Positions 7,999-29,229 of a DNA stretch of 29,472 nucleotides are shown here, in pieces; positions within the stretch are counted from its first letter, which is position 1, and every line of letters starts with the position of its first letter. The notes under the pieces were generated by a model. That model saw only the letters and a list, made by a program, of their open reading frames with translations, was not told the DNA's origin and did not search any database. The DNA is from an uncultured bacterium. GTDB lineage: Bacteria; Joyebacterota; Joyebacteria; Joyebacterales; Joyebacteraceae. The position numbers and the translations under genes are program-made. The stretch spans positions 1 through 29,472 of the forward strand of contig CAZFRO010000029.1 in the NCBI GenBank assembly GCA_964521425.1, read 5' to 3'.

Positions 7999-8061
7999 AT
8001 CATCCCCTTCCACTCTGAAGGGTCGGGACAGAGGCGCCCCATTCTCGGCGCGACGCCGGCC

Positions 8062-14661: not shown

Positions 14662-15000
14662 CTACCGACCCGTGTCTTCCTTGTACCTGTCGACGACCGT
14701 GCCCTCCCAGAGCCTTACACCGGCGATGTGCGCGCCGCGGGCAAGGGCGTGGCTTCCGGTCGGTGACGTCCACAGCACGAAGACCGCGGCCAGGAGCGCC
14801 TTGATCCCCATTGCGTTCCATCCTGAGTGCACAAGCACGCCGATGAGGATGAGTAGCGTGCCAAGTGTGACGCACTTCGTCGCGGCCTGAAGCCTGTTGT
14901 AGACATCGGGAAGTCGAATCAACCCAAGCGCGCCGACAAGATCGAACGCGACGCCGATGGAGATAAGGATGATGGGTACGAGTCCTATCTGACTACTCAT
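14662..15000 (-). CDS. mrpG: Na+/H+ antiporter subunit G (MrpG/MnhG)
   Basis: The hallmark RLPDVYNRLQAATKCVTLG is present, with three TM helices. It overlaps mrpF by 8 nt. Confidence 0.82.
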   Translation of the reverse strand: MSSQIGLVPIILISIGVAFDLVGALGLIRLPDVYNRLQAATKCVTLGTLLILIGVLVHSGWNAMGIKALLAAVFVLWTSPTGSHALARGAHIAGVRLWEGTVVDRYKEDTGR

Positions 15001-15247
15001 CGAATCCCCTCCCCTCCAGGTACTTCGCCAGAGCCAGTGTTCCGATGAATGCCAGTAGAGCCCAGGCGATGGCGATGTTGAGATAGAAGTCCTGACCGGT
15101 CACGATTCCAAAGACGCCGCAGATCCCCACCACCATCACGCCGATCGTGTCTATCGCAACCGCCCTGTCAGGGGGCGTCGGTCCCCTTGCCACCCTGTAG
15201 AGGCACATGAAGCACCCCATGATCAGCAGAAACAGGATTACGGTCAT
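14993..15247 (-). CDS. mrpF: Na+/H+ antiporter subunit F (MrpF/MnhF)
   Basis: 84 aa. Motif GPTPPDRAVAIDT with two or three TM helices. Its start shares one nucleotide with the mrpE stop. Confidence 0.78.
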   Translation of the reverse strand: MTVILFLLIMGCFMCLYRVARGPTPPDRAVAIDTIGVMVVGICGVFGIVTGQDFYLNIAIAWALLAFIGTLALAKYLEGRGFDE

Positions 15248-15750
15248 CAGTCGAACACCCTCCTCAAAGTGACCTCAAAGCGACCCGCGATGTCCCTGGT
15301 GATCGCCTCAGCGTCCTCGATGTTCTCATGGACGTTGATCCAGTGAACATAGAGCCAGTCATCGATGATATCTATGGTCAGTGTGCCAGGCGTGAGCGTG
15401 ATCGAGTTCGCGAGAAACGCCTTGCCTTCGTCACTCTTCAGTATCGTCTTGACCTTGACGATTCCCGGTCTGATGGGCAGGTTCGGATGCAGCACCCGGT
15501 AGAGAACGTCGAAGTTCGCCACGATAATCCAGAGCATGAGCGAGAGCAGATGCATGATCGCCCAGAACCACCGCACCGGACTGAAGAGTCTCTCCGCGTT
15601 CTTCGGCAGAAGCCCCGACAGGCCCAGCGCAAACAGTACCGCCAGTACCGCCCCGACAACCACCCCCTGCCAGTCGAGAGACCAGGTCAGGAGTAGCCAC
15701 AGGGCAAAGTAGATTGTGAGATCCAGGAGCCTTCGCTTCAGTGTGTCCAT
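15247..15750 (-). CDS. mrpE: Na+/H+ antiporter subunit E (MrpE/MnhE)
   Basis: MrpE-like TM N-terminus and conserved C-terminal region. The ATG at 15750 has AAGGAG 9 nt upstream and lies just after the mrpD stop (15767-15769). The track start at 15801 would overlap mrpD by 35 nt. Confidence 0.75.
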   Translation of the reverse strand: MDTLKRRLLDLTIYFALWLLLTWSLDWQGVVVGAVLAVLFALGLSGLLPKNAERLFSPVRWFWAIMHLLSLMLWIIVANFDVLYRVLHPNLPIRPGIVKVKTILKSDEGKAFLANSITLTPGTLTIDIIDDWLYVHWINVHENIEDAEAITRDIAGRFEVTLRRVFD

Positions 15751-15766
15751 CAGTGCTCCTTGCCCC

Positions 15767-17299
15767 CTATCCGAGGACCAGCTGGATGTACTCTGCACCA
15801 TTCATAAGAGCGTCGCGGGCGGGTTCCAGAACGCGCGGTCCCACCACGGGGTACAGAAGCCCCATTCCGACGCAGGCTATCGCCAGGAGGATGAGAGGCA
15901 CATACATGAGGGCGGGAACCTCCCTCGCCTTCTCAACAAGATTCGACACGGTCCCGTAGATGATCTCCCGCTGGACCTTGATGTAGTAGACCAGCGTCAC
16001 AAATGCGAAGATGATGGCCACGATCGCGATCCCCGTATGCCCCGCCTTGATCGTTGCAATCAGGATCAGGAGCTTGCTCCAGAATCCGCTGAACGGGGGA
16101 ACTCCGGCGATGGAGAGCGCCGCCATGTTCGTCGTGAAGGACGTGACTGGCATCGTCTCTCTCAGGCCACCCAGCTGCTTCATGTCCCTGGTTCCGGTCG
16201 CGTGCTGGATAGCGCCCGATGAGAGGAACAGAAGAGACTTGAACGCGACATGGTTGAACAGGTGGAAGAGGCCGCCCAGTATCGCGAGGCCCGCGATCGA
16301 AAGCTGACCACCGGTGGCGAGCACACGTGCACCCACACCGATTCCCAGCATCACATACCCGATCTGTCCGATCGAGCTGTACGCCAGAAGCCGCTTGTAG
16401 TCCCACTGTCCGATCGCCAGAAGACCGCCGACAATGATCGACAGAATCGAGAACGCTATCATGGCGTTCGCGAATATGATCGATCCGGCAGAGCCGGTTG
16501 AGATGCCGTAGACATTGAAGAAGATACGACAGATGGCGTAGATGCCGAGGCTCTTGATGACCACACCTGAGAGCATCGCAGAGATCGGCGCCGGCGCAGA
16601 TGGATGTGCATCCGGGAGCCATGCGTGGAACGGCACGAGCGCCGCCTTCAGCCCGAAGCCCATCAGGAAGAAGGCACCGGCAAGAAGCAGCGCGGGGTTC
16701 ATCTCCCCACCGAACCTCATTGCGATCTCCTGCGCGACATCCGCCATGTTGAGAGAGCCGGTCACCGCATAGACGGTCCCGATCCCGAACAGCAGCATCA
16801 CGGATGCCACGCTACCCAGGATGAGGTACTTGAAACCCGCCTCGAGTTCCTCTGCTCCCACGCCGAATGCGACAAGCGCGTACGACGCGATCGATGCGAC
16901 CTCCAGGAATACGTAGAGATTGAAGAGGTCTCCCGACACAACCACCCCATTCATCCCGGCCACCATCAACATGAAGAGCGAGTAGTACTTGGTGAGACCC
17001 GTATACATCTGCATGTACTTGAGCGAGAAGAGAATGCAGAGGAATCCGACGACGTTGATCGCTATGAGCAACAACGTCGAAAGACCATCGCTCACGAGAG
17101 CGATTCCCACCGGCGGCGCCCAGCCGCCCATGTGATACACGGCCGCCGGCCTGGTCACCTGCAGGACCGCCATGATCGCCAGTATCAGCGAAAACAGTGG
17201 GGCGAGGGTCTGCCCGCTCTTCTTCCACCAGACCCCGAGAAGGGGAATGAGGAAAGCTGCTCCGAGCGGGATCGCGACATAGAGTGGTAAAGGGTTCAT
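15767..17299 (-). CDS. mrpD: Antiporter-like subunit MrpD (NuoM/N family)
   Basis: 510 aa, polytopic. It has the conserved NuoL/M/N proton-pumping core, including the PFHAWLPDAH block. GAGGGG RBS. Confidence 0.85.
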   Translation of the reverse strand: MNPLPLYVAIPLGAAFLIPLLGVWWKKSGQTLAPLFSLILAIMAVLQVTRPAAVYHMGGWAPPVGIALVSDGLSTLLLIAINVVGFLCILFSLKYMQMYTGLTKYYSLFMLMVAGMNGVVVSGDLFNLYVFLEVASIASYALVAFGVGAEELEAGFKYLILGSVASVMLLFGIGTVYAVTGSLNMADVAQEIAMRFGGEMNPALLLAGAFFLMGFGLKAALVPFHAWLPDAHPSAPAPISAMLSGVVIKSLGIYAICRIFFNVYGISTGSAGSIIFANAMIAFSILSIIVGGLLAIGQWDYKRLLAYSSIGQIGYVMLGIGVGARVLATGGQLSIAGLAILGGLFHLFNHVAFKSLLFLSSGAIQHATGTRDMKQLGGLRETMPVTSFTTNMAALSIAGVPPFSGFWSKLLILIATIKAGHTGIAIVAIIFAFVTLVYYIKVQREIIYGTVSNLVEKAREVPALMYVPLILLAIACVGMGLLYPVVGPRVLEPARDALMNGAEYIQLVLG

Positions 17300-17302
17300 T
17301 GG

Positions 17303-17650
17303 CTATCCCCTCAGCTTGCTGATCACGGACATGTCAAAGGTGCCGTGCTTCTCGTAGAGCCGAATGCACATTGCCACCATGAGAGACAGGACACCCAGGC
17401 CGATGACGATAGACGTCAGAACCAGAGCCTGTGTAAGGGGGTCCACAAAACGCTCAAGGGTGGCAACCGGCATGTTCGGCTCGATGATCGGCGCCACACC
17501 GCCGTTCTTGTACCCGACGATGATGAGATACAGATTCACGGCGTAGTCCATGATGACTATCCCGAGAATCTTCTTCACGATGTTCTTCTTGGCCACGAGA
17601 CAGTAGAGCCCCATTGTCAGAAGAACTATGCACATGAAATAGACGGTCAT
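17303..17650 (-). CDS. mrpC: MrpC/MnhC (NuoK-like) subunit
   Basis: 115 aa with three TM helices. It overlaps mrpB by 4 nt. Confidence 0.78.
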   Translation of the reverse strand: MTVYFMCIVLLTMGLYCLVAKKNIVKKILGIVIMDYAVNLYLIIVGYKNGGVAPIIEPNMPVATLERFVDPLTQALVLTSIVIGLGVLSLMVAMCIRLYEKHGTFDMSVISKLRG

Positions 17651-18102
17651 GCCAGTTCATCCTCGATCATGGCCCTGAAGGAACGCCTACGGAAGACCGC
17701 CAGCGCCGAGAAAACCAGGAAGAGCGAGCTACCGACCTTGAACGCGATAGCAATGTTGAGCGGCAGGATCATCCCCGAACTTAAGAGCCGGAACGCTTCC
17801 CCCCTGCCGAAGGTGTTCATGAAGAAGAAACCGACGGTCACACCGAACCAGCCGATGAGCAGGAACATGAGAGCTCCTGCGCTGTCGAGAATGTGGGCCG
17901 TCTTCTCCGGCATCTTGGAGAAGGCCACTTCCTTCCCGTGTGCAAGCATCAGAAGGATGAAGGCGCATGCGATGATCACGCCTCCGGCGAATCCGCCGCC
18001 GGGTGTCAGGTGGCCATACAGCACGATATACGTGCCGAAGACTATGATGAAACCAACAACGAAGTCCGTGATCGTCTTGACTATGAGAGTCATACCGTTC
18101 AT
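17647..18102 (-). CDS. mrpB: MrpB/MnhB subunit
   Basis: The hallmark HLTPGGGFAGG is present, with four TM helices. It overlaps the upstream ORF by 4 nt. Confidence 0.8.
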   Translation of the reverse strand: MNGMTLIVKTITDFVVGFIIVFGTYIVLYGHLTPGGGFAGGVIIACAFILLMLAHGKEVAFSKMPEKTAHILDSAGALMFLLIGWFGVTVGFFFMNTFGRGEAFRLLSSGMILPLNIAIAFKVGSSLFLVFSALAVFRRRSFRAMIEDELA

Positions 18103-18656
18103 GCGGCGACCACCTCCTCTTCCTTCCTCTTCCCGTCTTTTCTCAGGAGCGCCAGGGCTCCGATAATCGACGTGAAGAGCACTGTCGCCTCGCCCATCGT
18201 GTCGTATGCCCGGAAGTCAAGGATCACCGACGATACGATGTTGGCGCAGTACGTCGCGGGAAGCCCGGTGTGTACGTACACCCTCGACACGCGCATGAGT
18301 GGCTCGCCAAACTCGGGGAAGCCCCTGCCCCCAAAGATCATCGCCCCAAACCCGAGGACCAGCCCGAAGAAGATCAGTGATGTCACGACCGCCAGAGTAT
18401 CTCGATGCGATTCGACCGCCGTGTTGTCGAGAAGGATCGTTCCCCTGATCAGGATGATCAGTACGAGAACCTCAACAACCAGCTGTGTGATCGCGATGTC
18501 GGGCGCTCCAAGAAAGAGGAACGCGACAGACAGCGCGAAGCCGACCGCAGCCACCGAGATCACAGCGGACAGGAGGTTCCTGGTCTCAATGGCCACGATC
18601 GATCCCACGATCATGAACACCAGGAGTGCATAGAGCTGAGGAGTGATGTTTTCCAT
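18099..18656 (-). CDS. MnhB-domain (DUF4040, MrpA C-terminal-like / MbhD-like) membrane protein
   Basis: GAPDIAITQLVVEVL matches the MnhB/DUF4040 signature that normally forms the C-terminus of MrpA. Here it is a separate ORF. Confidence 0.68.
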   Translation of the reverse strand: MENITPQLYALLVFMIVGSIVAIETRNLLSAVISVAAVGFALSVAFLFLGAPDIAITQLVVEVLVLIILIRGTILLDNTAVESHRDTLAVVTSLIFFGLVLGFGAMIFGGRGFPEFGEPLMRVSRVYVHTGLPATYCANIVSSVILDFRAYDTMGEATVLFTSIIGALALLRKDGKRKEEEVVAA

Positions 18657-18710: not shown

Positions 18711-20600
18711 CTACCTGCCGGCCATTTCCTTTAGCAGTGCCGTCAGTACCGCGAATACTATCGCACCGAGACCTATGACGCACCACGCGAGGTACGTCGA
18801 CAGGACGCCGCTGTGTAGAGACTTCAGCGCCTTGACGAAGACATCGCCGACCCGGCCGCCAACCACGTGGACGTCGAATACCTTCTGCTCGGCGTTCATG
18901 TAGAAGCCCTTGAACGGGATCATTTCCTTGATCGTGTTGTAGAAGCCCGTCCCGGTCACGTGCATCGCATCCATGCGCTCCGGCGGTCTCGTACCGCCGA
19001 TGAAGACATGGCCTACCCGCCTCTTCGTGAGTTTCCCCACCACTACCACGCCCAGCCCGACAATGATGCCCACGATGATAAGCCCGGTCGCACTTGCCGG
19101 ATCCCAATACCCGGCGCCGAGCGTGATCGCGCCTGCCGGCGTTGTGTCGACTGCCCCATGGACGATTGGATTGATGAACCTGTCCAGCGGGAACTTCGCC
19201 CAGACACCGAAGAGAACACAGAGGCCCGCGAATACGATCAACGGGATCCGAATGAACCAGGACGCCTCTCTCACGTGACTAAGTGCGCTCGGCTGCTGCC
19301 CAAGGAAGGCCGAGTAGAGAACCTTAACAAACGACGCGAGCGTCAGCGCACTTCCGAAGAGGGCGACGACAATGAAGATCCAGTACGCGCTGAAGCCTCT
19401 GCCACCCAGCTCGACAATGCCGGTGTAGATCATCCACTTCGAGACGAAGCCGTTGAACGGAGGCACACCGGAAATCGCGAACGCCGCGATTGCCATGGTG
19501 ATGAACGTGACAGGCATCGCCTTGGCGAGACCTCCCAGTTTTGAGATCTCCGTCGTTCCCGCCTGCTTCTCAATAGACCCGGCCCCAAGGAACAGACACG
19601 ACTTGTAGATGGCATGGTTGAGCATGTGGAAGATGCCGCCGGCGATGGCTATCGGGATTCCGGTGCCGATACCTAGCACCATGTACCCGACCTGGCTGAT
19701 CGCGTGGTACGAGAGCAGCACCTTGAGGTCGTGCTGGATGAGCGCCATCATAACGGCCGCGAATATCGTCACCGCACCTATGATCATAAGGACGAGCGAG
19801 AGACCTGGCCCTATGCTGAAGATGTCGAGACTGATTCTCGCAAGAAGATAGATTCCCAGAAGCTTGTCGATCGATGCCGGGAGCAGTGCCATCACCGGCG
19901 TCGGTGCGCCCTTGGCCGCAGCGGGAATCCACGTGTGAAACGGCATTGCGCCGGCCTTGGTGATCGCACCGATCATCAGAAGCAGATAGATGAACGTGGA
20001 CATCGGGGCGGCGACAAAGATCCTGAGATGGCTCATTGAGAGCGTGCCGTACTTGACCCAGATCAGAGCGACGGCAAGGAAGAGCGCGGCATCGGAGAAA
20101 CCGAGCATAAGGAAGCTCTTCGATGCACCATCGGAGGCCTCAGCACGCTTCTTGCCCAGGTTGATATACAGGTAGAGGATCGCGGTCAGCGCCTCCCAGA
20201 AGATAAGGAGGATGAGCAGACTGTTCGAGAGCACCGCACCGCAACTGGCCGCCACCGTCCAGAGCAGATAGGCGTAGTAACGCCTCCCATCGTGCTCCTT
20301 GTCGAGCCAGCCGATCGAGTAGATCCCCACACCTAACCCAAACAGACCCACAAACACGATGACAAAGGCACTGAAGTGGTTGAGCAGCAGGTCGAACTGA
20401 ACGTCAAGGCTGCCAAACACCACCCAGTCCTTCGTGAACGAGAGCGGCCACTGTCCGAACAGCTGGAGCGCAGCAACCAACGCCCACGCGGTGCCCGCAA
20501 TTGCGATCACCTCCCTGACGCCCTTGACCCGTTTCGGTACGAAGAGACAGAGCAGGCCGGCGACGGCAGGGATGATTATGGGAACCAGAATCTGTGGCAT
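18711..20600 (-). CDS. mrpA: MrpA/NuoL-like antiporter subunit (HyfB/MbhH-like)
   Basis: 629 aa, polytopic, with a NuoL-family core (GWLDKEHDG..., PTPVMALL..., HAISQVGYM...). It lacks the MrpB-like C-terminal fusion. Confidence 0.85.
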   Translation of the reverse strand: MPQILVPIIIPAVAGLLCLFVPKRVKGVREVIAIAGTAWALVAALQLFGQWPLSFTKDWVVFGSLDVQFDLLLNHFSAFVIVFVGLFGLGVGIYSIGWLDKEHDGRRYYAYLLWTVAASCGAVLSNSLLILLIFWEALTAILYLYINLGKKRAEASDGASKSFLMLGFSDAALFLAVALIWVKYGTLSMSHLRIFVAAPMSTFIYLLLMIGAITKAGAMPFHTWIPAAAKGAPTPVMALLPASIDKLLGIYLLARISLDIFSIGPGLSLVLMIIGAVTIFAAVMMALIQHDLKVLLSYHAISQVGYMVLGIGTGIPIAIAGGIFHMLNHAIYKSCLFLGAGSIEKQAGTTEISKLGGLAKAMPVTFITMAIAAFAISGVPPFNGFVSKWMIYTGIVELGGRGFSAYWIFIVVALFGSALTLASFVKVLYSAFLGQQPSALSHVREASWFIRIPLIVFAGLCVLFGVWAKFPLDRFINPIVHGAVDTTPAGAITLGAGYWDPASATGLIIVGIIVGLGVVVVGKLTKRRVGHVFIGGTRPPERMDAMHVTGTGFYNTIKEMIPFKGFYMNAEQKVFDVHVVGGRVGDVFVKALKSLHSGVLSTYLAWCVIGLGAIVFAVLTALLKEMAGR

Positions 20601-20618: not shown

Positions 20619-21791
20619 CTAGAGATTCTTCTTAAGCCATTCGGTCTTCTGGTGACTCAGCTTGATAAGATCATGTCCGTTCGCGATTCTCTTGCCGCCT
20701 GGGTCGATCACAGCGATGCGCTCCGTGCAGCTGTAGCACGGGTCGATGATCGCGAAAATGACCGTGGCGTCTGAGATGCTCTCGCCCTTCACGCGCGGTC
20801 GATAGGACGGGATGTTCACGAAGGTTGGCGCCCTCATCTTATGCCGCTCGGGCATGTTCGTGCCGTTCGAGCGGATGAAGTGGAAGCACTCGCCGCGCGG
20901 GGCTTCAACGTGACCGATTCCCTCTCCCCGCGGGATCTCGCGAACCTCACTCCTGATCTCCCCGCCGGGCAGCTTCTTGATGCACTGCTGGACGATCTTG
21001 ACCGACTCCAATATCTCGAGAAGCCTCACCACAGCCACAGCCAGCATATCGCCATCGGGCTGGGTGATGACCTTCCAGTCAACCTCGTCATACGCGCCGT
21101 ACGGTTCGTCTCTGCGGACGTCGATGTCAACGCCTGAACCTCGCGCGGTCGGACCAAGAACGCCGTACGCGACCGCGTCCTCATTGGTCAGGATGCCGAC
21201 GCCCTTCAAGCGTCCCAATATGACCGGGTCGTTGAGAATGGCGCCGATGAGCATGTTGGTCTTCTCCACAAACTCATCCATTGCCTTCAGTACTGGTGGC
21301 CAGACATCATCAGGAACCTCGCGCCTGACACCACCTGGGCAATACCACGCGTAGTTGTTCCTGTTTCCGGTGATTGCCTCGAGCGCGTCGAGGATCGGCT
21401 CCCGGTACTTCCAGCCCCACATGAAGACGGTCCAGTAGCCGATGATGTGTCCGGCAAGTCCTACCCAGAGCATGTGGCTGTGCAGCCGCTCCAGCTCGTG
21501 GACGATGGTTCTCAGATAGCGCGCACGATCAGGAACGACGATCCCGCCGATATCTTCCATCGCAAGGGTCGCTGCCCAGCTGTGTGAAGCCGAGCAGATA
21601 CCGCAGATTCGCTCAACCAGGAACACGTCCTGATCGAACGTCTTCTCCTCGGCCAGAAGCTCCATCCCTCTGTGGATGCGCCCGAGATCCATGTCGGCGC
21701 CCACCACAGTCTCCCCCTCGACCTGCAGAGTGATATACTCCGGCTCCTCGAGGAGAGGATGGAATGGCCCAATGGGAATGGTTGTGCTCAT
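20619..21791 (-). CDS. Group 4 [NiFe]-hydrogenase large subunit (NuoD/HycE C-terminal/MbhL-like)
   Basis: N-terminal NiFe motif ERICGICSASHSW (RxCGxCxxxH) and C-terminal DPCYSCTER (DPCxxCxxR). A roughly 30-aa extension follows, consistent with maturation-protease processing. Confidence 0.9.
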   Translation of the reverse strand: MSTTIPIGPFHPLLEEPEYITLQVEGETVVGADMDLGRIHRGMELLAEEKTFDQDVFLVERICGICSASHSWAATLAMEDIGGIVVPDRARYLRTIVHELERLHSHMLWVGLAGHIIGYWTVFMWGWKYREPILDALEAITGNRNNYAWYCPGGVRREVPDDVWPPVLKAMDEFVEKTNMLIGAILNDPVILGRLKGVGILTNEDAVAYGVLGPTARGSGVDIDVRRDEPYGAYDEVDWKVITQPDGDMLAVAVVRLLEILESVKIVQQCIKKLPGGEIRSEVREIPRGEGIGHVEAPRGECFHFIRSNGTNMPERHKMRAPTFVNIPSYRPRVKGESISDATVIFAIIDPCYSCTERIAVIDPGGKRIANGHDLIKLSHQKTEWLKKNL

Positions 21792-22220
21792 TTATTCGTC
21801 TCTCCTCATTGCATGGAAGTCTGCCGGTCTGTCATGGGAGGAGAGTATCTTGCGCGGATCCGGATGGTCGACGAACTCAACGCCCAAGAAATCGAAAATC
21901 TCTCGCTCGATGAAATCTGCAGCCGGGTAGTACTTCGTAAGCGCTTCTATTTTTGGGAATGGCTTGTCGAGTGTTGTTCTGATGTTTACAACCGTGCCCT
22001 CACGATCAATTGCGAAGTGGTACAGGAGCTCCACCCCCGTTGACCGATCGCTCCCCGTCGCCGTCGTAAGCCTCCCCCCCTCCACCTCGTACATGTGCCG
22101 TGTCACAGCAATCCAGTCGTCATTCGAGACCGCGACATACGCACGCTTGTGGTTGTGTTCGTAGATCTCCACGCGGTCGCCGAACTTCGCCTTCAAGTTC
22201 TCAAGAACCTGTTTGCTCAT
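21792..22220 (-). CDS. NuoC-like subunit (30 kDa family; HycE N-terminal domain equivalent, MbhK-like)
   Basis: NuoC-fold sequence. The ATG at 22220 has GGGGAG 10 nt upstream; the track start at 22259 has no RBS. Its stop abuts the large-subunit ATG with no gap. Confidence 0.78.
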   Translation of the reverse strand: MSKQVLENLKAKFGDRVEIYEHNHKRAYVAVSNDDWIAVTRHMYEVEGGRLTTATGSDRSTGVELLYHFAIDREGTVVNIRTTLDKPFPKIEALTKYYPAADFIEREIFDFLGVEFVDHPDPRKILSSHDRPADFHAMRRDE

Positions 22221-22299
22221 CGTCTTGTCACTCCCCGAGCCCGGGCCTTTGGGCGGCAACCCCGCACCGCTTCCTTCACCACCGGCTCATCCTGTTCAG

Positions 22300-22713
22300 C
22301 TAGAGCGTCCCCAAGAGCTTCACGACCGCGCCGATGATTGCCTCGGGTCGCGGAGGGCACCCTGGGACATACGCGGCGACCGGAACATGCTTGTCGACAG
22401 GTCCCGCGAAGTTGTACCCGTCCTTGAAGATCCCGCCCGTGCACGCACACGCCCCGATAGCTATAACCACAGCCGGCTGGGGCGCCTGCTCGTATGCTTC
22501 GATCAGATCGGGCACGACCTTCCGCGGCACGCTGCCCGAGACCAGAAGCACATCGGCGTGCTTCAAGCTGCCGACGAGCTTCATCCCGAAGCGCTCCACG
22601 TCGTACTTCGGGCACAGACAATCGAGAACCTCGATGTCACAGTTGTTGCACGCGCCCGCGTTCAGATGGAACAGCCACAACGACTTCTTGAATCCCCACT
22701 TGGTTGCGTCCAT
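22300..22713 (-). CDS. [NiFe]-hydrogenase small subunit (NuoB/HycG/MbhJ-like)
   Basis: Proximal cluster Cys ligands GACNNCDIEV, GACACTGG and VPGCPPRPE. Confidence 0.85.
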   Translation of the reverse strand: MDATKWGFKKSLWLFHLNAGACNNCDIEVLDCLCPKYDVERFGMKLVGSLKHADVLLVSGSVPRKVVPDLIEAYEQAPQPAVVIAIGACACTGGIFKDGYNFAGPVDKHVPVAAYVPGCPPRPEAIIGAVVKLLGTL

Positions 22714-22735: not shown

Positions 22736-23674
22736 CTAGAATCCGAGGATCGCGAGAATCATGCCGACGACCGCTATCACGGTGACAGGTCCCCAGAAGA
22801 ATCTGACGGCCTGGTCGATCCTGACCCTCGGAGTTGTGTTCTTGATGAGAACAATGATCACAATGATTATCACGTACTTCACGATCGTGTAGAGAATGCC
22901 CCACCCCGAGAGAACCAGTCCACCCCAGAAGACCGTGATAAGGAAGATGGGCAGCGTGAAGAGCATCATGGCCTGCTGAAGCTTGATGACGGCAAGTGCC
23001 GCGCCCGAATACTCTATGTGCGTCCCGTCCATCAGCTCAGTTTCAGCCTCCGGGATGTCGAACGGCGGGAACGTGAGCTTCGCCTGAACAACCAGAATGC
23101 AGACGATGAATGCCAGAATGCAGGAGGCGTTGCCAAGAAGCACACCGTTGGCCGCCTGGTACTGGAGAATGCCGTCAAGTCTCAGTGTCATCGGGGACAC
23201 CTTGGTGACGGCCGTGAAGATCGCGATGACAAACGGAAGCTCGTACGCAAGGACGAGCTTCATTTCGCGGCTGGCGCCGATGCTGGCAAGCGGATTACTC
23301 GATGCGGAAGCGCCTAGAATGATCCCGAGCGAGGGAATCGTCAGAAGGTAGATGACACCGATGAGATCTCCGACGAAGCCCGTGCCGTGCATGTTGGTGA
23401 GCCAGAGCATCGTGGACACAACACCAACGGCGGCAAGTCCGGCCATTGGTGCGAATAGGAATCCCGCCCGCCTCGCTCCAGCCGGTATGATTATCTCCTT
23501 GCCCATCAACTTGAGGACGTCGGCGAACGGCTGGTACCACGGCGGGCCGACCCTCCACTGGACCAGCGCACTCACCTTGCGGTCAATCCACTGCGTCACG
23601 AGCCCTATCACCGCCGTGAAGAGCAGACCTGGGAAGATGAGAAAGCTCAGAACCAACCCGAGTGTTGAAGCCAT
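22736..23674 (-). CDS. NuoH-like membrane subunit (HycD/EchB/MbhM-like)
   Basis: 312 aa with eight TM helices. It carries the conserved NuoH-family charged loop regions. Confidence 0.82.
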   Translation of the reverse strand: MASTLGLVLSFLIFPGLLFTAVIGLVTQWIDRKVSALVQWRVGPPWYQPFADVLKLMGKEIIIPAGARRAGFLFAPMAGLAAVGVVSTMLWLTNMHGTGFVGDLIGVIYLLTIPSLGIILGASASSNPLASIGASREMKLVLAYELPFVIAIFTAVTKVSPMTLRLDGILQYQAANGVLLGNASCILAFIVCILVVQAKLTFPPFDIPEAETELMDGTHIEYSGAALAVIKLQQAMMLFTLPIFLITVFWGGLVLSGWGILYTIVKYVIIIVIIVLIKNTTPRVRIDQAVRFFWGPVTVIAVVGMILAILGF

Positions 23675-23728: not shown

Positions 23729-24247
23729 TTACCTCGGCCTCCTCACCGTCTTCATCACACTACGGGCTCCGCGCATCGGAACGCCCTTCTGAGCTTCCAC
23801 GTCGCTGATGTCCTCGAAGGTCCGAGCCCCCGAGACGCACGTCCCGGCACACATCGAATCCTTCGCCTCGAGAGTTCGCCAGTTGCAGAGATCACACTTG
23901 TCGAGCGTGTGCCGCGTCTTCAGGAGATCGATCGCCCCGAAGGGACACGCCTGCGCGCACGACGTGCAACCACTGCACTTGATGTTGCTGCGAATGACCA
24001 GACCGTCATCGCGACGCTGAATCGCCTCCTGCGGGCACGCCGCTTCACAGAGCGGCTGCTCACAGTGTCGGCAGTTCATCTGCAGCACAATGTTCGTCAT
24101 GATAGGCGAAGCCTCAAGCTGGTTCTGCATGTTGTGCGAGTAGAAGCATGCCGCGAGGCAGCTCTTGCAGCTGATGCAGCGTCCGTAGTCGAGGACGTTT
24201 CTGTTGTTCATCCAGCTCTCCTGCTTTATCGCGCTCGCGCGGTCCAC
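23729..24247 (-). CDS. HycB-like poly-ferredoxin (four [4Fe-4S] motifs)
   Basis: Four Cys clusters: CISCKSCLAAC, CRHCEQPLCEAACP, CSGCTSCAQACP and CDLCN...C. Confidence 0.78.
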   Translation of the reverse strand: MDRASAIKQESWMNNRNVLDYGRCISCKSCLAACFYSHNMQNQLEASPIMTNIVLQMNCRHCEQPLCEAACPQEAIQRRDDGLVIRSNIKCSGCTSCAQACPFGAIDLLKTRHTLDKCDLCNWRTLEAKDSMCAGTCVSGARTFEDISDVEAQKGVPMRGARSVMKTVRRPR

Positions 24248-24270: not shown

Positions 24271-25959
24271 TTAGTCCTCCGGCACAATCTTCACGTCGGA
24301 GGAGGTTACATCAAACCACTTGGTGCCGGCGTTCAGGGTCCAGACCATGAGCCCTCGCGCGTCAGGTACATATGAGGGAATGGCCACGAGCCCTGGTGGC
24401 ATCCTGTCCGTCACAGTTGTTATGAGGCGAGTCTCGCCTCTCCCTGTCGAGATGGCCACGGTCGAGCCCTGCTCGATGCCGGCCTCATCCGCCGCCTCTT
24501 CAGAAAGCCACATCTCGCAGTATGGATTCTGCGCCTGCGGGAAACTCATACGTCCCGTCAGCGTTCCGTCCCAGCGATGCAGCGGACTGATGCTCTCGAC
24601 AAGCTCGAGCCCACCACCGGGCGCGCTCGCAAGCTTGCCAAGCGCCGCGTTCACGTCCACGGCCAGCTCTGAGTGCGTGGCGGTTGCCCCGCCCGCCGGA
24701 ATCCCAATCCCCATCTCGGCCGCGATGTCCGCCATCATCATCCCGACAGACCTCGCGTCGCCCTGTGGCTTCGCGCACGTATCGAGCGATGTTGAGAAGC
24801 CAAACGACGGTGAGTAGCTTCCGTTGAATTCCGTCCAGACTGCCTGCGGCAGCCCGACATCGCTGTGCTTCGATGTGTCGTTCTCAAAGATCGCGGAAGC
24901 CGCGAGAAACTCAAGGCTCTCCAGATCCTCCGGACTAACTGCCCCCGGATAGAGCTGCACAAGATCCGGCCCTAACACCAGGAGTCCCTTGATTCTCTTG
25001 TCGGCAACACCAGACAGGATCTCCGCTGCGGTCCGGTTGGAACTGACGCGCTCGTAAGCGCCTATAGCATTCCCACCTCTAAAGAGAGGCGCGTACTTGC
25101 CGCCCGCGGCAGATGCGAGCTTCGCTGCGAGAAGACCCGTAAGATAACCGGATGTAGAGTCGCCGAGTCTCGAAGAGACGACGACAACGACCTTCTGGGA
25201 GTTGCGGAGCCCCGCAGCAATCCTCTCGATTCCAGCCTTCGACATTCCGCCCGCGGCTGCCGCCGCCTCAACATCCACGGAAGGTGAACCTTGTACGTTC
25301 ATGGCCTTGAGCAGAGCGGCCAGAATGAGGGGTTCGCTTCCGGCCGGCGGCTCGATGTGCAGATCGGCGAACCAGTCGGTGTTGGAACGGTAAGGATTGA
25401 TAGTGATGATCTGATTCGACCTGCTCTTGTGTCTTGCCTCAATGATGCGCTTCGACACGGTCGGGTGCCCCCAGAACACATCCCCGATCAGGACAAAGCA
25501 GTCCGCTTCGTCGAGATCCTCCGGGGTTGCATCGCCGGCTCCACCGCCCGTGAGCAAGCCGTAGTCGTTCCCGTCGTAGGCAACGCCTATGCTCGTGGTG
25601 CCAAGAACGTGTGTGGCGAAACCGACGGCCGCATCGTAGTCCTCGTTCGAGAGCTCTGTCCCGACGATGACACCGAGCGCATCGGCTCCATGGTTCGTCT
25701 TTATCTCGTCCATCTTCCCGGCCATCTTCGTCACCGCGACAGACCACGGCACTCTCCGCCGGTTGACGGTAGCCGCGAGGAATCGCTTCGGGTGAAGAAG
25801 GATTTCGAGGTTGTAGTGTCCTCTGGCGCAGAGCGACCCGCGGGACAGAGGCGACTCCTCATCGAAGTCTACCCTCACGGGCACTCCTTGGTCGACCTCC
25901 ACCGCGAACCCGCACTGGAGGGAGCAGATGAGACAAGACGCCTTCCTGATCTCTGGCAT
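24271..25959 (-). CDS. Molybdopterin-oxidoreductase family subunit, FdhF-like but non-canonical
   Basis: N-terminal 4Fe-4S ligands C9, C12, C16 and C44 align with FdhF C8, C11, C15 and C42. A C-terminal MGD-cap-like domain is present. The region aligning to FdhF CCARVU(Sec140)HGP reads GVAYDGNDYG, so no Sec or Cys is there. There is no in-frame TGA. RBS CAGGGGAAG. Confidence 0.7.
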   Translation of the reverse strand: MPEIRKASCLICSLQCGFAVEVDQGVPVRVDFDEESPLSRGSLCARGHYNLEILLHPKRFLAATVNRRRVPWSVAVTKMAGKMDEIKTNHGADALGVIVGTELSNEDYDAAVGFATHVLGTTSIGVAYDGNDYGLLTGGGAGDATPEDLDEADCFVLIGDVFWGHPTVSKRIIEARHKSRSNQIITINPYRSNTDWFADLHIEPPAGSEPLILAALLKAMNVQGSPSVDVEAAAAAGGMSKAGIERIAAGLRNSQKVVVVVSSRLGDSTSGYLTGLLAAKLASAAGGKYAPLFRGGNAIGAYERVSSNRTAAEILSGVADKRIKGLLVLGPDLVQLYPGAVSPEDLESLEFLAASAIFENDTSKHSDVGLPQAVWTEFNGSYSPSFGFSTSLDTCAKPQGDARSVGMMMADIAAEMGIGIPAGGATATHSELAVDVNAALGKLASAPGGGLELVESISPLHRWDGTLTGRMSFPQAQNPYCEMWLSEEAADEAGIEQGSTVAISTGRGETRLITTVTDRMPPGLVAIPSYVPDARGLMVWTLNAGTKWFDVTSSDVKIVPED

Positions 25960-25984: not shown

Positions 25985-26830
25985 TTAGAATGGATCCTCG
26001 AACGAGGCGACCTGTGCCGCCGTCATGACGGGTCCGTCCTTGCAGATGTAGAGCTCGCCCATCATGCAGTGCCCGCACTTACCTAGCCCACAGCTCATGT
26101 TGCGCTCCATCGAGTGGTAGATGTTCTCCGGCTTGAAGCCCTTCTCGAGAAGCGCGATGTTCACGAACTTAAGCATGATCGGGGGCCCACAAACACAGGC
26201 GACGGCCGTCTCCGCGCTGAACGGCAACCCTTCGACATCGACGGTGGTGAGAAGAGGCAGATCGTCAAGAAGCACCGTTACTACACCCACCTTGCCGGTC
26301 CAGTTCTCTGCCGGCTCGTCGATCGTCAGCAACACCTCAGTGTTCTTCATCTTCTCCCACTCGCGGAGAAGGTCCTTGAAGATAACGTCTTCGGGCGTCC
26401 TCGCTCCGTAGCGGATCGACACCTTCTTGTAGCGATCGATGTCGTCGAAGAGTGCCAAGATGAGCGACCGAAGCGGGGCCAGTCCAACGCCGCCGCCCAT
26501 TATCAGAATCTCTTTGCCGTCGAAGTCGGCCATGTTGTAGCCGTTGCCGTACGGCCCACGGATCCCGACGGTGTCTCCCACCTTCATCTTTGTGAGCGCG
26601 TGCGTCACCGTGCCGACGTCCATGATCGTGATCTCCATCGTCTCTGTGACGTTGGGGTTCGACGACGGCGTGAATGGAGCCTCTCCAACTCCCGGCACCG
26701 TAAGCTCAACGAACTGACCCGCCGCAAAGGTAAGTGGCTCCTTTGGACGGAATCTGTAGGTTGTGATGTTCGGGGACTCCTGCTTGATATCCTCGATCAC
26801 ACTCTCTATTGGCCTGTAGATGTTCTTCAT
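25985..26830 (-). CDS. FAD/NAD(P)-binding [2Fe-2S] oxidoreductase subunit (HydG/AsrB/PyrK-like)
   Basis: FNR-like fold. The C-terminal CGLGKCGHCMMGELYIC is a 2Fe-2S motif. The start is reassigned to the ATG at 26830, which forms an ATGA overlap with the upstream stop. The track start at 26923 would overlap the upstream gene by 97 nt. Confidence 0.78.
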   Translation of the reverse strand: MKNIYRPIESVIEDIKQESPNITTYRFRPKEPLTFAAGQFVELTVPGVGEAPFTPSSNPNVTETMEITIMDVGTVTHALTKMKVGDTVGIRGPYGNGYNMADFDGKEILIMGGGVGLAPLRSLILALFDDIDRYKKVSIRYGARTPEDVIFKDLLREWEKMKNTEVLLTIDEPAENWTGKVGVVTVLLDDLPLLTTVDVEGLPFSAETAVACVCGPPIMLKFVNIALLEKGFKPENIYHSMERNMSCGLGKCGHCMMGELYICKDGPVMTAAQVASFEDPF

Positions 26831-27894
26831 GCCTTTGCCATCTCCGTGACGACGTGCTTGATAGATTCCCTCATATCGATCCGGCCCATGCAGACATCGA
26901 TGCATCTGCCGCAGCCGGTGCACGAGACCGCGCCGTACCTGTCACGTGAATACTCCAACTTGCAGCGAATACGATTCTCCAGGCGCTGTGGCAGGTTCGG
27001 CCTCGAGTTGCCGCCTCCACCGGTCCTGGCATAGCCGATTGACAGACAGGTGTCCCAGTTCCGTGTTCGCTCGTAGCCGCCCTCCGCCCTCTGGTCCACA
27101 AGCAGGAAACACGTACACGACGGACAGGTGCGATTGCAGGCTCCGCAGCCGACGCAGTTCTGCGTGACGTATGCCCACGCGGCCTCGTCGCTACCCAGCT
27201 CGTGTTTGTCGTGGGCGACGTCGACTGCGTACTGAGCGTTCTGACGCTCGACGGCCGCCGTCACCGAGGCTCGGCTTCTGCTCCGCTCATCCTTGTGATT
27301 CGAGTCGACCGGAGTGAAGAGGTCGTCGCTCCCATCGAGGAGCTTCTCCCCCTTGTCCGAGCCGGTCGTGAGGATGTACCCGGACTCAAGCGGAGAGATG
27401 TTGAGATCGAATCCTTCGTCGACATACGGCTTCCCACCCATCATCGTGCAGAAACAGGTCTCCTTCGACGCGGTACAGTCGACGGAGACGAGGACGGTGT
27501 TCTGCCGCTTCTCAATGTAGAACGGGTCGTCGTATTCCTCTGTGAAGTGCTTCGTGCTCCAGTAGACCTTGTCGAATTTCTCGAGACCATCAAGGTCACA
27601 GGCCCGCGGTCCTACGACGATCGTCGCCGGCGCCTCCACGCTCGCCTCGGGATCGCTGCTCGGATACTTCGCGACCACCTCGCGCGCGTAGAAGAGGAAC
27701 GTCTTGGGGGACTGTGCTGGGCACGCCCCGTGGAGCTCAAGTTTGTCGGGGACCTCTTCCTTCACCAGCTCGTAGTCGGGTGTCTCCGAGTTGTTCATGA
27801 TGTCGAACGTGACCGGGACGTAGACCCTCTGGTTCTTGGCCCAGCGCCCGATGAGCTTGAGGAGGTTCTCTCGTCCGATGAAGACTTCTTTCAT
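26827..27894 (-). CDS. Iron-sulfur subunit (HydB/AsrA-like)
   Basis: Motifs CVGCGACNRTCPSC and CTGCGRCIDVC plus additional Cys. The start is reassigned to the ATG at 27894 (MKEVFIG...), which has GAGAGGG upstream. The upstream 45 codons of the track ORF (GTG at 28029) use AT-rich codons (AAA, GAA, CAA, AGA) that are atypical for this genome. Confidence 0.72.
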   Translation of the reverse strand: MKEVFIGRENLLKLIGRWAKNQRVYVPVTFDIMNNSETPDYELVKEEVPDKLELHGACPAQSPKTFLFYAREVVAKYPSSDPEASVEAPATIVVGPRACDLDGLEKFDKVYWSTKHFTEEYDDPFYIEKRQNTVLVSVDCTASKETCFCTMMGGKPYVDEGFDLNISPLESGYILTTGSDKGEKLLDGSDDLFTPVDSNHKDERSRSRASVTAAVERQNAQYAVDVAHDKHELGSDEAAWAYVTQNCVGCGACNRTCPSCTCFLLVDQRAEGGYERTRNWDTCLSIGYARTGGGGNSRPNLPQRLENRIRCKLEYSRDRYGAVSCTGCGRCIDVCMGRIDMRESIKHVVTEMAKA

Positions 27895-28224
27895 CCTGGC
27901 AAGCCCTCTCGCTTGGAGTTCTTTCGTTTTATCCGGCCGGCTCGTACGAGCCGTACGACCTTCCTGAGCGTAAATAAACCCCACATCGCTATTCGCTAGG
28001 AAAGCGATCCCGGGGTCTTTGTGTGCCACAGAGGTGGCTGGAACGCACCAGTCGTTGCCAGCAAGTAACAGTCAGTCCTTTCAACTGATTGTTGCTCGCG
28101 GGGCGAAGCCTGTGCGCTCTCCGCCCGCGCCACGGAACAAAAACGGGCCCGTATCGAGCCCTTATAGCCCAAGAGAGTCTAGCGGCCGGTGCGCGAACTG
28201 TCAAGCGCAAAAGGGGATAATCAG
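27895..28224 (-). promoter_or_regulatory. Leader/promoter region of the hydrogenase-Mrp operon, containing a 16-bp perfect palindrome and an upstream inverted repeat
   Basis: CGGCTCGTACGAGCCG (27938-27953) is a perfect palindrome 44 nt upstream of the ATG, with the direct repeat TCGTACG x2. ATCGCT-N12-AGCGAT lies at 27985-28008. An AT-rich patch taaataaa lies at 27971-27978 in an otherwise GC-rich context. Confidence 0.4.
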
Positions 28225-29229
28225 CTACCGCTTTGTCTCCATGAACCTGAGGTCCAGCTCGCCCTCACCGGCATCGTCATTGAGGATGTACTTCTTCACC
28301 GTGGAGAGCACGGTGTCCATCGTCTCGAGCCAGAGCCGGGTGCGGATGGTGCTCCGTCCGCTCCGGTACTCGGCGACGAGTGCGCGGAAGCGGTCCGCCT
28401 CACCCTGCGCTCTGTGAACGAACTCTGTGCTGTCGCCGCGTGCGGCGATGATCAGCGCCGCGCCCTCACCACGGGCCATCGGCACGACTCGGTTGGCGTA
28501 GCCGTTGGCCTCCTGGATAATGCGGTTCTTGTCCTCACGCGCACTGGCCACATCCCTGAACGAGTCAGCCACATCGCGCGGAGGATTGACCTCCTGGATA
28601 TGAGCCGCCACGAGTTCGATCCCTGTGCCGTAGGAGTCGAGTATCTCCTGCGCGCCCGCCTTGACGTAGCGCTCGATCTCGAGCTTCGCGGTGGTCAGTA
28701 CGTCATCAACGCTCGTGACCGCCACCTTCTCCGTCAGGACCGCCTCGCAGGCTTTCCGCACGAGCCAGTGCGGCTCCTCAACTCCGAACAGGAACGCCGC
28801 CGGATCCTTCACGACATACTGAATGAGAAGCTGTCCCTCTATGATATTCGCATCTCCGGTGACAAACTGCGTCTCCCGCGAGGTAGCGGCGAGCCCTCGG
28901 ACCCGATCGATGATCTTGTAGCCGATGCTCATTCTCTTGATGGACGTCACCTGGGGGGTCGCAACTCTGCCCACGGGCCACGGAGGCCGGTAGTGGATGC
29001 CTGGCTCTATGTTGGCGGAGACGAGCCGGCCGAAGCGTGTAACGACGCCCCGCTCGTCGGGCTCCACGACATATATGCCCGACAATAGATACATCGTCAG
29101 GAGGCCCAGCACGAAGAGCCGCGCGAGCCGCTTCACGCGAGGCAGACCGGCCTTCATGTCGGTCCCGACGCTCGCCTCATCGGCCCAGATGGCCCTCTTG
29201 TCGCTGCCCATGTCCTGCCCGTGGCTCAC
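28225..29229 (-). CDS. hflK: HflK-like SPFH/band-7 protein
   Basis: An N-terminal TM helix, then an SPFH domain. The C-terminus RAQGEADRFRALVAEYRSGRSTIRTRLWLETMDTVL resembles the HflK C-terminal region. The start is GTG 29229 or ATG 29211. Confidence 0.8.
   Translation of the reverse strand: MSHGQDMGSDKRAIWADEASVGTDMKAGLPRVKRLARLFVLGLLTMYLLSGIYVVEPDERGVVTRFGRLVSANIEPGIHYRPPWPVGRVATPQVTSIKRMSIGYKIIDRVRGLAATSRETQFVTGDANIIEGQLLIQYVVKDPAAFLFGVEEPHWLVRKACEAVLTEKVAVTSVDDVLTTAKLEIERYVKAGAQEILDSYGTGIELVAAHIQEVNPPRDVADSFRDVASAREDKNRIIQEANGYANRVVPMARGEGAALIIAARGDSTEFVHRAQGEADRFRALVAEYRSGRSTIRTRLWLETMDTVLSTVKKYILNDDAGEGELDLRFMETKR

Follow-up and report, generated by a model that had tools for sequence, protein, structure and literature searches.

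The stretch of DNA analysed here (the window) is a contig of 29,472 nucleotides from an uncultured bacterium of the lineage Joyebacterota (GenBank assembly GCA_964521425.1, contig CAZFRO010000029.1, positions 1 to 29,472). Its minus strand carries a 14-kb operon for a membrane-bound [NiFe] hydrogenase, and within this operon lies a gene for a protein with the fold of the molybdenum/tungsten bis(pyranopterin guanine dinucleotide) (Mo/W-bisPGD) enzymes, such as the formate dehydrogenase (FDH) FdhF of E. coli. It is referred to below as the alpha-like protein. The first-pass annotation of the window described it as an FdhF-like subunit apparently lacking the selenocysteine (Sec) or Cys that ligates the metal, and suggested, among other options, an Asp-ligated centre as in NarG, or a cofactor-less scaffold resembling the C-terminal domain of NuoG. 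The analysis presented here suggests that it is most likely a degenerate Mo/W-bisPGD alpha subunit (a 'pseudo-enzyme'), which has retained the fold, the [4Fe-4S] cluster FS0 and a four-cluster ferredoxin partner. The features of the gene are as follows.

24271-25959, minus strand: Mo-bisPGD-fold alpha-like subunit of 562 aa, with no internal stop, identified from Pfam domains, an AlphaFold2 (AF2) model and Foldseek.
25819-25935, minus strand: FS0 [4Fe-4S] motif, C9-x2-C12-x3-C16...C44-A-R46-G47, its four Cys present in 64/64 close homologues.
25558-25590, minus strand: shortened metal-ligand loop, residues 124-134 (IGVAYDGNDYG), as located by the alignments; it holds Asp132 and has no Cys or Sec.
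24274-24609, minus strand: truncated domain IV (a β-barrel resembling Molydop_binding), residues approximately 451-562, recognised from a partial Pfam match and the map of deletions; the equivalent of FdhF 690-715 is gone.

The gene is a single uninterrupted ATG...TAA frame of 562 codons, whose only stop codon is the terminal TAA. Recoding of a stop codon as Sec is ruled out, there being no in-frame TGA, TAA or TAG ahead of it. The seven Cys residues are at positions 9, 12, 16, 44, 154, 395 and 481. Pfam matches, all with modest scores, are found to Molybdop_Fe4S4 (residues 6-53), Molybdopterin (69-412) and Molydop_binding (469-533), the last of these spanning just profile positions 17-82 of 110. 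The AF2 model has a predicted local distance difference test score (pLDDT) of 92.5 and shows the four-domain Mo-bisPGD fold, and when submitted to Foldseek it matches NapA, FdhH and NuoG with template modelling (TM) scores of 0.74-0.84 (0.81 for FdhH, 1fdi). The protein is 153 residues shorter than E. coli FdhF (NC_000913, 715 aa), and 149 absent residues map to FdhF 242-261, 346-377, 495-513, 528-551, 560-569 and 690-715. The name 'FdhF-like' therefore holds for the fold and architecture, but not for the family: the score against the Fdh-alpha model (TIGR01591) is 125.2 bits, compared with a family cut-off of 666.25, and the protein falls in a separate clade, as described next. The NuoG model TIGR01973 also scores below its cut-off (52 bits, compared with 470), and the N-terminal 2Fe-2S/4Fe-4S domain of NuoG is absent, the alpha-like protein beginning directly at FS0.

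A search for homologues over 5.8 billion proteins identified 88 close homologues, of about 560 aa and with 57-91% identity; the next matches are ordinary molybdoenzymes, at no more than 25% identity. A repeat of this search with a broad family alignment found the close family again and nothing further. Where a source is named for the close homologues, it is mostly 'Candidatus Eisenbacteria', and otherwise 'Armatimonadetes' or simply 'bacterium', and the GTDB species genomes contain five relatives at 85-94% identity, four of them in metagenome-assembled genomes of Candidatus Eisenbacteria. The names assigned to them by annotation pipelines based on hidden Markov models (HMMs) are 'anaerobic selenocysteine-containing dehydrogenase' and 'formate dehydrogenase major subunit'. 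When 1.84 billion cluster representatives (clustered at 50% identity) were searched exhaustively with HMMER, a wider family of 70 clusters was obtained at E < 1e-30, most of them short (460-620 aa), resembling Mo-oxidoreductases, and aligned end to end at 25-34% identity, with standard FDH, Nas and NuoG-like proteins ranking below them. In a neighbour-joining tree calculated from Poisson distances with 300 bootstraps, which is unrooted and contains few outgroups, the close and wider families form one clade (300/300), which is split from FDH and Nas (300/300). On this tree the family is a distinct one, and is not nested within the FDHs.

The region around the metal ligand is where the protein departs most obviously from an FDH. 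The segment picked out in the first-pass annotation corresponds to residues 121-139. When the alpha-like sequence is paired singly by HMMER with three solved FDHs (Thermoanaerobacter FdhF from the hydrogen-dependent CO2 reductase (HDCR), 7qv7_S; Methanospirillum Fdh, 7bkb_D; and the F420-dependent FDH 9t1s_L, in which Sec is printed as X), A127 faces the Cys/Sec and Y128 faces His141, and 4 residues are deleted just before. With a family profile HMM, and in three MAFFT alignments, it is N131 that faces the Cys/Sec. As judged from the alignments, this disagreement is one of gap placement only, and whichever register is taken, residues 121-137 contain neither Cys nor Sec. The loop that joins strand 124-126 to helix 132-139 in the AF2 model is 5 residues long, compared with 8 in FdhF. 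The position of the catalytic His141 is filled by Y128 or D132, depending on the register. The region of the FdhF Arg333 reads PLFRGGNAIG where FdhF has PVRGQNNVQG, with Phe in the Arg column and Arg294 one residue later; Arg294 is invariant in the 64 close homologues and is not conserved across the wider family. Within the loop, A127 and D132 are conserved in 64/64 close homologues, D129 in 63/64 and Y128 in 61/64. The full conservation of A127, D132 and R46 in homologues from independent assemblies demonstrates that these features are not an assembly artefact. The main observations of the first-pass annotation are thus borne out: the N-terminal Cys quartet is invariant, the ligand segment has neither a Cys nor an in-frame TGA, the protein is shorter than FdhF by about the 150 residues estimated, and the alignment by eye, which might have hidden a conserved Cys or Sec through an indel, is replaced by alignments that put A127 or N131 at this position.

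It is worth adding that four full-length (637-697 aa) FDH-like representatives outside the family also lack the ligand Cys, having 'RLTH' (P0139 and P0171), 'NLYD' (P0200) or 'RAQR' (P0244) in its place, and there are therefore further ligand-less lineages in the Mo-bisPGD superfamily.

No openly available list of the contacts between FdhH and molybdopterin guanine dinucleotide (MGD) was found in the literature, and invariant columns were used in its place, with NuoG as a negative control. The control set consisted of E. coli NuoG, the only member experimentally established to be cofactor-less, and four NuoG-type representatives classed by sequence alone. One test drew on 16 enzymes whose metal ligand is Cys or Sec (8 Nas and 8 FDH, one of these being E. 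coli FdhF), and selected the columns conserved in 14 or more of them. Of the 88 columns obtained, the alpha-like protein retains 25 of the 47 that the NuoG-like control set has also kept, and only 8 of the 41 that this set has lost (Fisher p=0.0018). The columns lost include D134, R138, U140, R204, Q335, K451, R460, D478, R581, H655, D670 and K679. The other test was carried out across the superfamily, using columns invariant in at least 9 of 10 sequences from six lineages (FDH, Nas, E. coli NapA, DmsA, TorA and NarG). This alignment is validated by the true ligands DmsA S205, TorA S191 and NapA C179, which share the column of U140. It gives 41 columns, 26 NuoG-kept and 15 NuoG-lost. The close family retains 20/26 of the former and 4/15 of the latter (Fisher p=0.003), and the wider family retains 21/26 and 1/15 (Fisher p=7e-6). 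Asp429, which is present in 10/10 of the true enzymes, is Ala in the alpha-like protein; T271, G298 and D478 are replaced by Gly, Arg and Val, respectively. Moreover, of the six segments of FdhF that are deleted in the alpha-like protein, four (at about 242-261, 346-377, 528-551 and the C-terminal tail) are also affected by deletions in NuoG of E. coli. With the ligand, the His/Arg pair of the FDHs and most of the residues that hold the bisPGD being lost, the protein therefore most likely binds no Mo/W cofactor and does not oxidise formate.

Two substitutions were considered as further signs of cofactor loss and were dropped. Lys44 of FdhF is replaced by R46 in 64/64 of the close family and in 48/56 family representatives, and the NuoG-like group also has Arg; however, column 44 lies outside the set of positions invariant in at least 9/10 superfamily sequences. 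NarG and DmsA have Arg at this position, which bridges FS0 and the pterin. The other is N176D, where TorA likewise has Asp. As a separate observation on FS0, its third Cys is replaced by Asp in 3/56 family representatives (P0112, from locus L006, P0116 and P0145), giving C-x2-C-x3-D, as in 'CPFCCLQDGL'; in these proteins the cluster could be Asp-ligated or lost.

Further evidence comes from the comparison of loci. These were L001 (close family, 64% identity), L004, L005, L006 and L007 (wider family, 25-33%), and L019 and L020, which encode short forms, together with four Eisenbacteria loci (L009-L012). In every pairwise comparison of loci, the alpha-like protein is the least conserved subunit of the operon: 64% identity to L001, compared with 72-84% for the other subunits; 28-30% compared with 33-62% for L004, L005 and L007; and 85-91% compared with 84-99% for the four Eisenbacteria loci. 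The ratio of nonsynonymous to synonymous substitution rates (dN/dS) against the latter is 0.085-0.12, compared with 0.03-0.09 for the HydG-like, ferredoxin, NuoH, NuoB and large hydrogenase subunits; against the more distant L001 it is 0.21, with 0.11-0.17 for the neighbours. The gene is clearly under purifying selection. These ratios, and the presence of the same features in 64 independent homologues, led us to reject the possibility of a pseudogene or assembly artefact.

In about 20 of the representative clusters, which make up a sub-clade of the family, the protein is just 446-485 aa long. Two such forms of about 470 aa were checked in their contigs (P0129, L019 4315-5745, and P0137, L020 3357-4769), and are complete genes in contigs of 19-32 kb. 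Both end just past an HF(A/S)DGxxT motif, and lack domain IV altogether; both retain the FS0 Cys. They are followed directly by the ferredoxin gene and the rest of the same operon, with the Ni-Fe motifs of the hydrogenase intact. In true Mo-bisPGD enzymes, domain IV caps both pterin dinucleotides, and the conserved function of these orthologues therefore cannot depend on bis-MGD.

The alpha-like gene has the following neighbours in the operon, in order of transcription.

26827-28029, minus strand: HydB/AsrA-like iron-sulfur subunit, 400 aa (Fer4_22; matches to the NCBIfam models sulfhyd_HydB, ShyB and AsrA, all below their cut-offs).
25985-26830, minus strand: HydG/AsrB-like FAD/NAD(P)H/[2Fe-2S] subunit, 281 aa from the ATG at 26830 (FAD_binding_6, NAD_binding_1, DHODB_Fe-S_bind).
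23729-24247, minus strand: four-cluster ferredoxin of the type found as the beta subunit of Mo enzymes (HycB/CooF-like), 172 aa (Fer4_11).
22736-23674, minus strand: NuoH/MbhM-like membrane subunit (PF00146, E 7e-62).
22300-22713, minus strand: NuoB/MbhJ-like hydrogenase small subunit (PF01058).
21792-22259, minus strand: NuoC/MbhK-like subunit (PF00329).
20619-21791, minus strand: group 4 [NiFe]-hydrogenase large subunit (RICGICSASH at residue 61, DPCYSCTER at residue 350).
18711-20600, minus strand: antiporter-like subunit, NuoL/MbhH-like (Proton_antipo_M).
18099-18656, minus strand: MbhD/E (Pfam), the start of an Mrp-type membrane module that extends over 14662-18656.
17647-18102, minus strand: MnhB (Pfam), same module.
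17303-17650, minus strand: NuoK-like (Pfam), same module.
15767-17299, minus strand: second antiporter-like subunit (Pfam), same module.
15247-15801, minus strand: MnhE (Pfam), same module.
14993-15247, minus strand: MrpF-like, assigned from its position only, by synteny with L001.
14662-15000, minus strand: MnhG (Pfam), same module.
14029-14634, minus strand: 2x[4Fe-4S] ferredoxin, which occupies the place of NuoI/MbhN/HycF and closes the operon (Fer4 family matches).

The HydBG-like module suggested in the first-pass annotation is real. The only PDB match to the HydB-like protein is the beta subunit of P. furiosus sulfhydrogenase I (9nez_B, E 8.9e-40), and the best match to the HydG-like protein is the gamma subunit of the same enzyme (9nez_C, E 8.4e-50), with the [2Fe-2S] Cys cluster and the GxGxAP nucleotide loop aligned. 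The two genes overlap at 26827-26830, where the sequence ATGA contains both the stop of the HydB-like frame and the probable start codon of the HydG-like one. A longer HydG-like frame, with a GTG start at 26923, is also present in the list of open reading frames; homologues have 263-283 aa, and this GTG is probably not the real start. The four-cluster ferredoxin is matched by HDCR HycB3/4, EbdB, PsrB, FdnH, NarH and HycB of formate hydrogenlyase (FHL). The large hydrogenase subunit has both Ni-Fe motifs intact, and among PDB chains it comes closest to P. furiosus MbhL (6cfw_L, E 3.8e-77), with HycE next. The two CxxC Ni-Fe motifs, the partners resembling NuoB/C/H/I and the membrane subunits of the Mrp type place the complex with the Mrp-Mbh-type group 4 hydrogenases.

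The gene order HydB-like, HydG-like, alpha-like, four-cluster ferredoxin, NuoH, NuoB, NuoC is the same in all eight other loci inspected (25-64% identity). The genes for the large hydrogenase subunit and antiporter follow wherever the contig extends far enough; in L006, which is on a short contig, the order is partial. A ferredoxin is also found at the last position of the operon in L001, L004 and L007. As to the cofactor genes that had been proposed as a check, there are no genes of the moa, moe, mob, fdhD or fdhE type, and no chaperone genes, within the window or the annotated flanks of the compared loci.

Some features around the operon may be mentioned here. A 155-aa open reading frame (13345-13812, minus strand) lies directly after the last operon gene, a position which in L004 is held by the maturation protease HycI; this identity was rejected for the present protein, which has no similarity to the HycI of L004 and no Pfam match. 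Immediately upstream of the HydB-like gene, L005 (5223-7600) and L020 (294-1424) have a histidine kinase and/or a sigma-54-type response regulator, which hints at dedicated regulation of the operon in these two loci. In the window the upstream gene is HflK (28225-29229), and there is no such kinase or regulator there. On the other side, 8675-13348 (minus strand) encodes a protein of 1557 aa with Peptidase_C25 (gingipain-like), FG-GAP repeats, a right-handed β-helix/NosD region, FlgD-Ig and a weak match to Por_Secre_tail, the sorting domain of type IX secretion. These domains fit an origin in the FCB group (Eisenbacteria). A second FG-GAP protein is encoded at 7063-8013.

Taken together, these results suggest, with a probability of roughly 60%, that the alpha-like subunit is a cofactor-less adaptor carrying FS0, in an NAD(P)H-linked, ion-translocating hydrogenase. 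The proposal made at first pass, that a NuoG-like scaffold bridges the HydBG-like module to the hydrogenase, is in this sense favoured by the pattern of residue loss, the shared deletions, the rate of evolution, the orthologues without domain IV and the gene order, although the bridging itself is a matter of predicted contacts. From these comparisons we infer the following arrangement and electron path, in which the nucleotide may be NADH or NADPH and catalysis may run in either direction. The alpha-like subunit would be the platform through which the HydB/HydG-like module, of the sulfhydrogenase beta/gamma type, docks onto the ferredoxin wire of the Mrp-Mbh-type group 4 [NiFe] hydrogenase. 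Its FS0 face would bind the four-cluster ferredoxin, in the way that FdhF binds HycB and FdnG binds FdnH (PMC9474812). Electrons would enter from NAD(P)H to the FAD and then the [2Fe-2S] cluster of the HydG-like protein, and from there to the [4Fe-4S] clusters of the HydB-like protein. FS0 may come next, either as a link on the path, or as an off-path side cluster with a stabilising role, like N7 of NuoG. The onward route would be through the four clusters of the HycB-like ferredoxin to the MbhN-like 2x[4Fe-4S] protein, the MbhJ-like cluster and finally the [NiFe] site. The standard potentials are near -320 mV for NAD(P)H and near -414 mV for H+/H2. Production of H2 from NAD(P)H is therefore uphill under standard conditions, and needs either a low H2 pressure or input from an ion gradient through the Mrp module. 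In the reverse direction, the reduction of NAD(P)+ by H2 could conserve energy through the Mrp-type membrane module.

A bolder extension of this proposal, which we regard as speculative and rather unlikely, is that the complex is a living, independently evolved counterpart of the proposed step from an FHL-type complex to complex I. An FHL-like alpha/beta input module would have been kept while its FDH degenerated to a NuoG-like adaptor and an NAD(P)H dehydrogenase was gained, giving an NAD(P)H:H+ / H2:NAD(P)+ oxidoreductase coupled to an ion-motive force. In its boldest form, Asp132 would mark a new site, for Asp-bound Mo/W, for another metal or for a nucleotide, with a catalytic or sensing role.

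Several observations weigh against a cofactor-less adaptor. The window's protein still has a domain IV, albeit truncated, and keeps an H-x-x-D-G-T-x-T-G-R motif at its start. The NuoG-like pattern of loss could reflect common ancestry with NuoG rather than function, and four of the five control proteins owe their place there to classification by sequence. FdhF D202, the first Rossmann-type acid, is mostly retained in the wider family, being Asn in the close family. Arsenite oxidase binds its Mo-bisPGD without any protein ligand, and a missing ligand therefore proves nothing by itself. Finally, Asp132 (codon 25564-25566, minus strand) is, apart from Cys and Gly, the most conserved residue of the family in spite of divergence to about 25% identity, with 54 D and 2 E among the 56 representatives. 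The profile alignment places it one residue past the Sec column, and MAFFT puts it in one column with the ligand Asp of NarG.

This last point bears directly on the possibility of a working but non-canonical Mo/W-bisPGD enzyme, ligated by Asp132 (as NarG is by Asp222) or unligated (as in arsenite oxidase), which would oxidise or reduce some substrate and supply the hydrogenase in the manner of FdhF in FHL, with the HydBG-like module as a second input or output. It would account for the invariance of Asp132 and its alignment with the NarG ligand column, and it is in this form that the first-pass suggestion of a NarG-like centre would hold. It is also in keeping with the complete four-domain fold modelled at high confidence, the canonical alpha/beta pairing with a four-cluster ferredoxin, the purifying selection on the gene, and the Arg at the position bridging FS0 and pterin, as in NarG and DmsA. 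However, 11 of the 15 superfamily-invariant, NuoG-lost positions are gone in the close family and 14 of the 15 in the wider family, as is the universal Asp429; FS0 is ligated here by four Cys, whereas NarG uses His-Cys3; the fastest evolution in the operon is not expected of a catalytic subunit; and chaperone and molybdenum cofactor genes are not found nearby. Moreover, the equivalent of Asp132 persists in orthologues without domain IV, which could hardly hold bis-MGD, and this favours a role for the Asp unrelated to that cofactor. In the AF2 model, D132 caps the N-terminus of helix 132-139, a place taken by a conserved Ser/Thr in FDH and Nas; the NuoG-like proteins have no counterpart of this invariant loop Asp. 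It could be a helix N-cap, as the model suggests, or a ligand to a metal or nucleotide. A working enzyme of this kind is thus considered unlikely.

The second alternative is a variant of the cofactor-less adaptor, in which the pocket is vestigial for Mo and binds a small ligand, for example a guanine nucleotide, with a structural or sensing role. There is a precedent in the NuoG of M. smegmatis, which has GTP-like density in the former MGD site, approximately 10 Å from N7, and no formate activity (PMC10068793). This protein (8e9g_G) has 21% identity to the alpha-like protein, the highest among the best 16 Foldseek matches in the PDB, tied with 7bkb_D at rank 17. The family also has specific invariant acidic residues besides D132, namely D160 and D332, and the three together could bind a Mg-nucleotide; and the D202 acid is mostly kept in the wider family, as noted. 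Set against this, the close family, including the window's protein, has Asn at D202 and Ala at D429, and a bound ligand of this type appears improbable here. An ordinary Cys/Sec FDH, with the missing ligand an artefact of alignment or sequencing, has next to no probability and is refuted for the alpha-like protein by its sequence: the pipeline names of the homologues and the loop Cys of a few distant members (SCSF, ACSF, SCAF; sporadic and at differing positions) would favour it, but residues 121-137 have no Cys, the frame has no in-frame TGA, the same kind of loop is found in 64 independent homologues, and the Fdh-alpha score is 125 bits against a cut-off of 666.

If the alpha-like subunit is indeed a cofactor-less adaptor, the pipeline names would lead to formate-dependent H2 production being wrongly inferred when metabolism is reconstructed for Eisenbacteria, and probably for other candidate phyla. 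The Mbh-like large subunit on its own would suggest a ferredoxin-only group 4 enzyme, whereas the operon predicts an NAD(P)H-linked, ion-translocating hydrogenase. The family would add a second widespread example of the decay of an FDH-type alpha subunit, attached to a complex-I-like core, into an FS0-bearing adaptor beside a flavoprotein module, and it would bear on the debated scenario in which an FHL-type complex preceded complex I (PMC9474812). Within this one family there is a graded series, from full-length through truncated forms to those without domain IV, which would lend itself to studies of the conversion of a molybdoenzyme into a scaffold.

A close parallel among known systems is the C-terminal domain of NuoG/Nqo3/NDUFS1, which likewise has a ligand-less Mo-bisPGD fold, an FS0-equivalent cluster (N7) and Arg at the FdhF Lys44 position, has lost the same superfamily-invariant positions and the same segments, and has on one side a flavoprotein module that oxidises NAD(P)H and on the other a core of the NuoB/C/D/H/I type. 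NuoG is an established precedent for the absence of cofactor, with N7 off the electron path (PMC10068793, PMC9474812). Unlike NuoG, the alpha-like protein has no N-terminal [2Fe-2S]/[4Fe-4S] (N1b/N4/N5) domain, and its flavoprotein partner is HydB/HydG (AsrA/AsrB) and not NuoE/F; a separate four-cluster beta-type ferredoxin is kept, the core is a true [NiFe] hydrogenase, and the loop Asp is invariant in the family.

In having an FS0-bearing alpha subunit and a four-cluster ferredoxin on a group 4 [NiFe] hydrogenase, the complex resembles FdhF-HycB of E. coli FHL (group 4a) and the Fdh-Mfh-Mnh formate-respiring hydrogenases (group 4b). It differs from them in having no Sec or Cys, in the missing His141 and Arg333, in an alpha subunit shorter by 153 aa, in the added HydBG-like NAD(P)H module, and in a large subunit that is closest to MbhL and not HycE. 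The HydB-like and HydG-like proteins have their best solved relatives in the beta and gamma subunits of P. furiosus sulfhydrogenase I (group 3b), with the FAD, NAD(P)H and [2Fe-2S] motifs aligned, although their scores are far below the NCBIfam equivalog cut-offs, and here they adjoin the alpha-like subunit of a membrane-bound group 4 enzyme in place of the group 3b alpha/delta pair.

Degenerate alpha-type modules that serve as scaffolds or electron-transfer parts are also known in QrcB and in NfnA/StnC. The QrcB model of NCBIfam matches alpha-like residues 6-420 (E 2.4e-15, below the cut-off), and 9bov_A and 8oh5_C are among the PDB matches of the alpha-like protein. Of NfnA/StnC (PMC12018979, PMC7483475), StnC had been annotated as an FDH and has no formate activity (PMC7483475). 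These proteins are unlike the present one in being parts of a quinone reductase and a bifurcating transhydrogenase, with other domain fusions, and all of the scores are below cut-off.

The gene set itself matches, as far as the description of its gene content allows a comparison, an 'enigmatic' group 4 [NiFe] hydrogenase reported in 2019 from Saganbacteria RX5A, with Mrp-like subunits, cooF-, asrA- and asrB-like genes, and a molybdopterin oxidoreductase not assignable to the FDHs by phylogeny (PMC6349859). In the parts of that report consulted, relatives were noted in Zixibacteria and Omnitrophica, an Mbh-like function was proposed, and the subunit was treated as molybdopterin-containing (PMC6349859). 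The portions of its main text and Supplementary Note 5 consulted say nothing of a lost metal ligand, of degeneration in the manner of NuoG, or of forms that lack domain IV. In the literature searched, no other paper describing this combination of genes was found, nor any characterised NAD(P)H-linked, ion-translocating hydrogenase of this type. Similar Mrp-linked hydrogenases of Omnitrophota and Cloacimonadota have been reported as group 4g, of 'unknown function' (PMC8542988, PMC5037454). What is known, therefore, is the existence of cofactor-less relatives, in NuoG, QrcB and NfnA/StnC; what is new is that probably degenerate alpha subunits form a distinct and widespread family of their own, as part of an uncharacterised Mrp-Mbh-type hydrogenase that is predicted to be NAD(P)H-linked.

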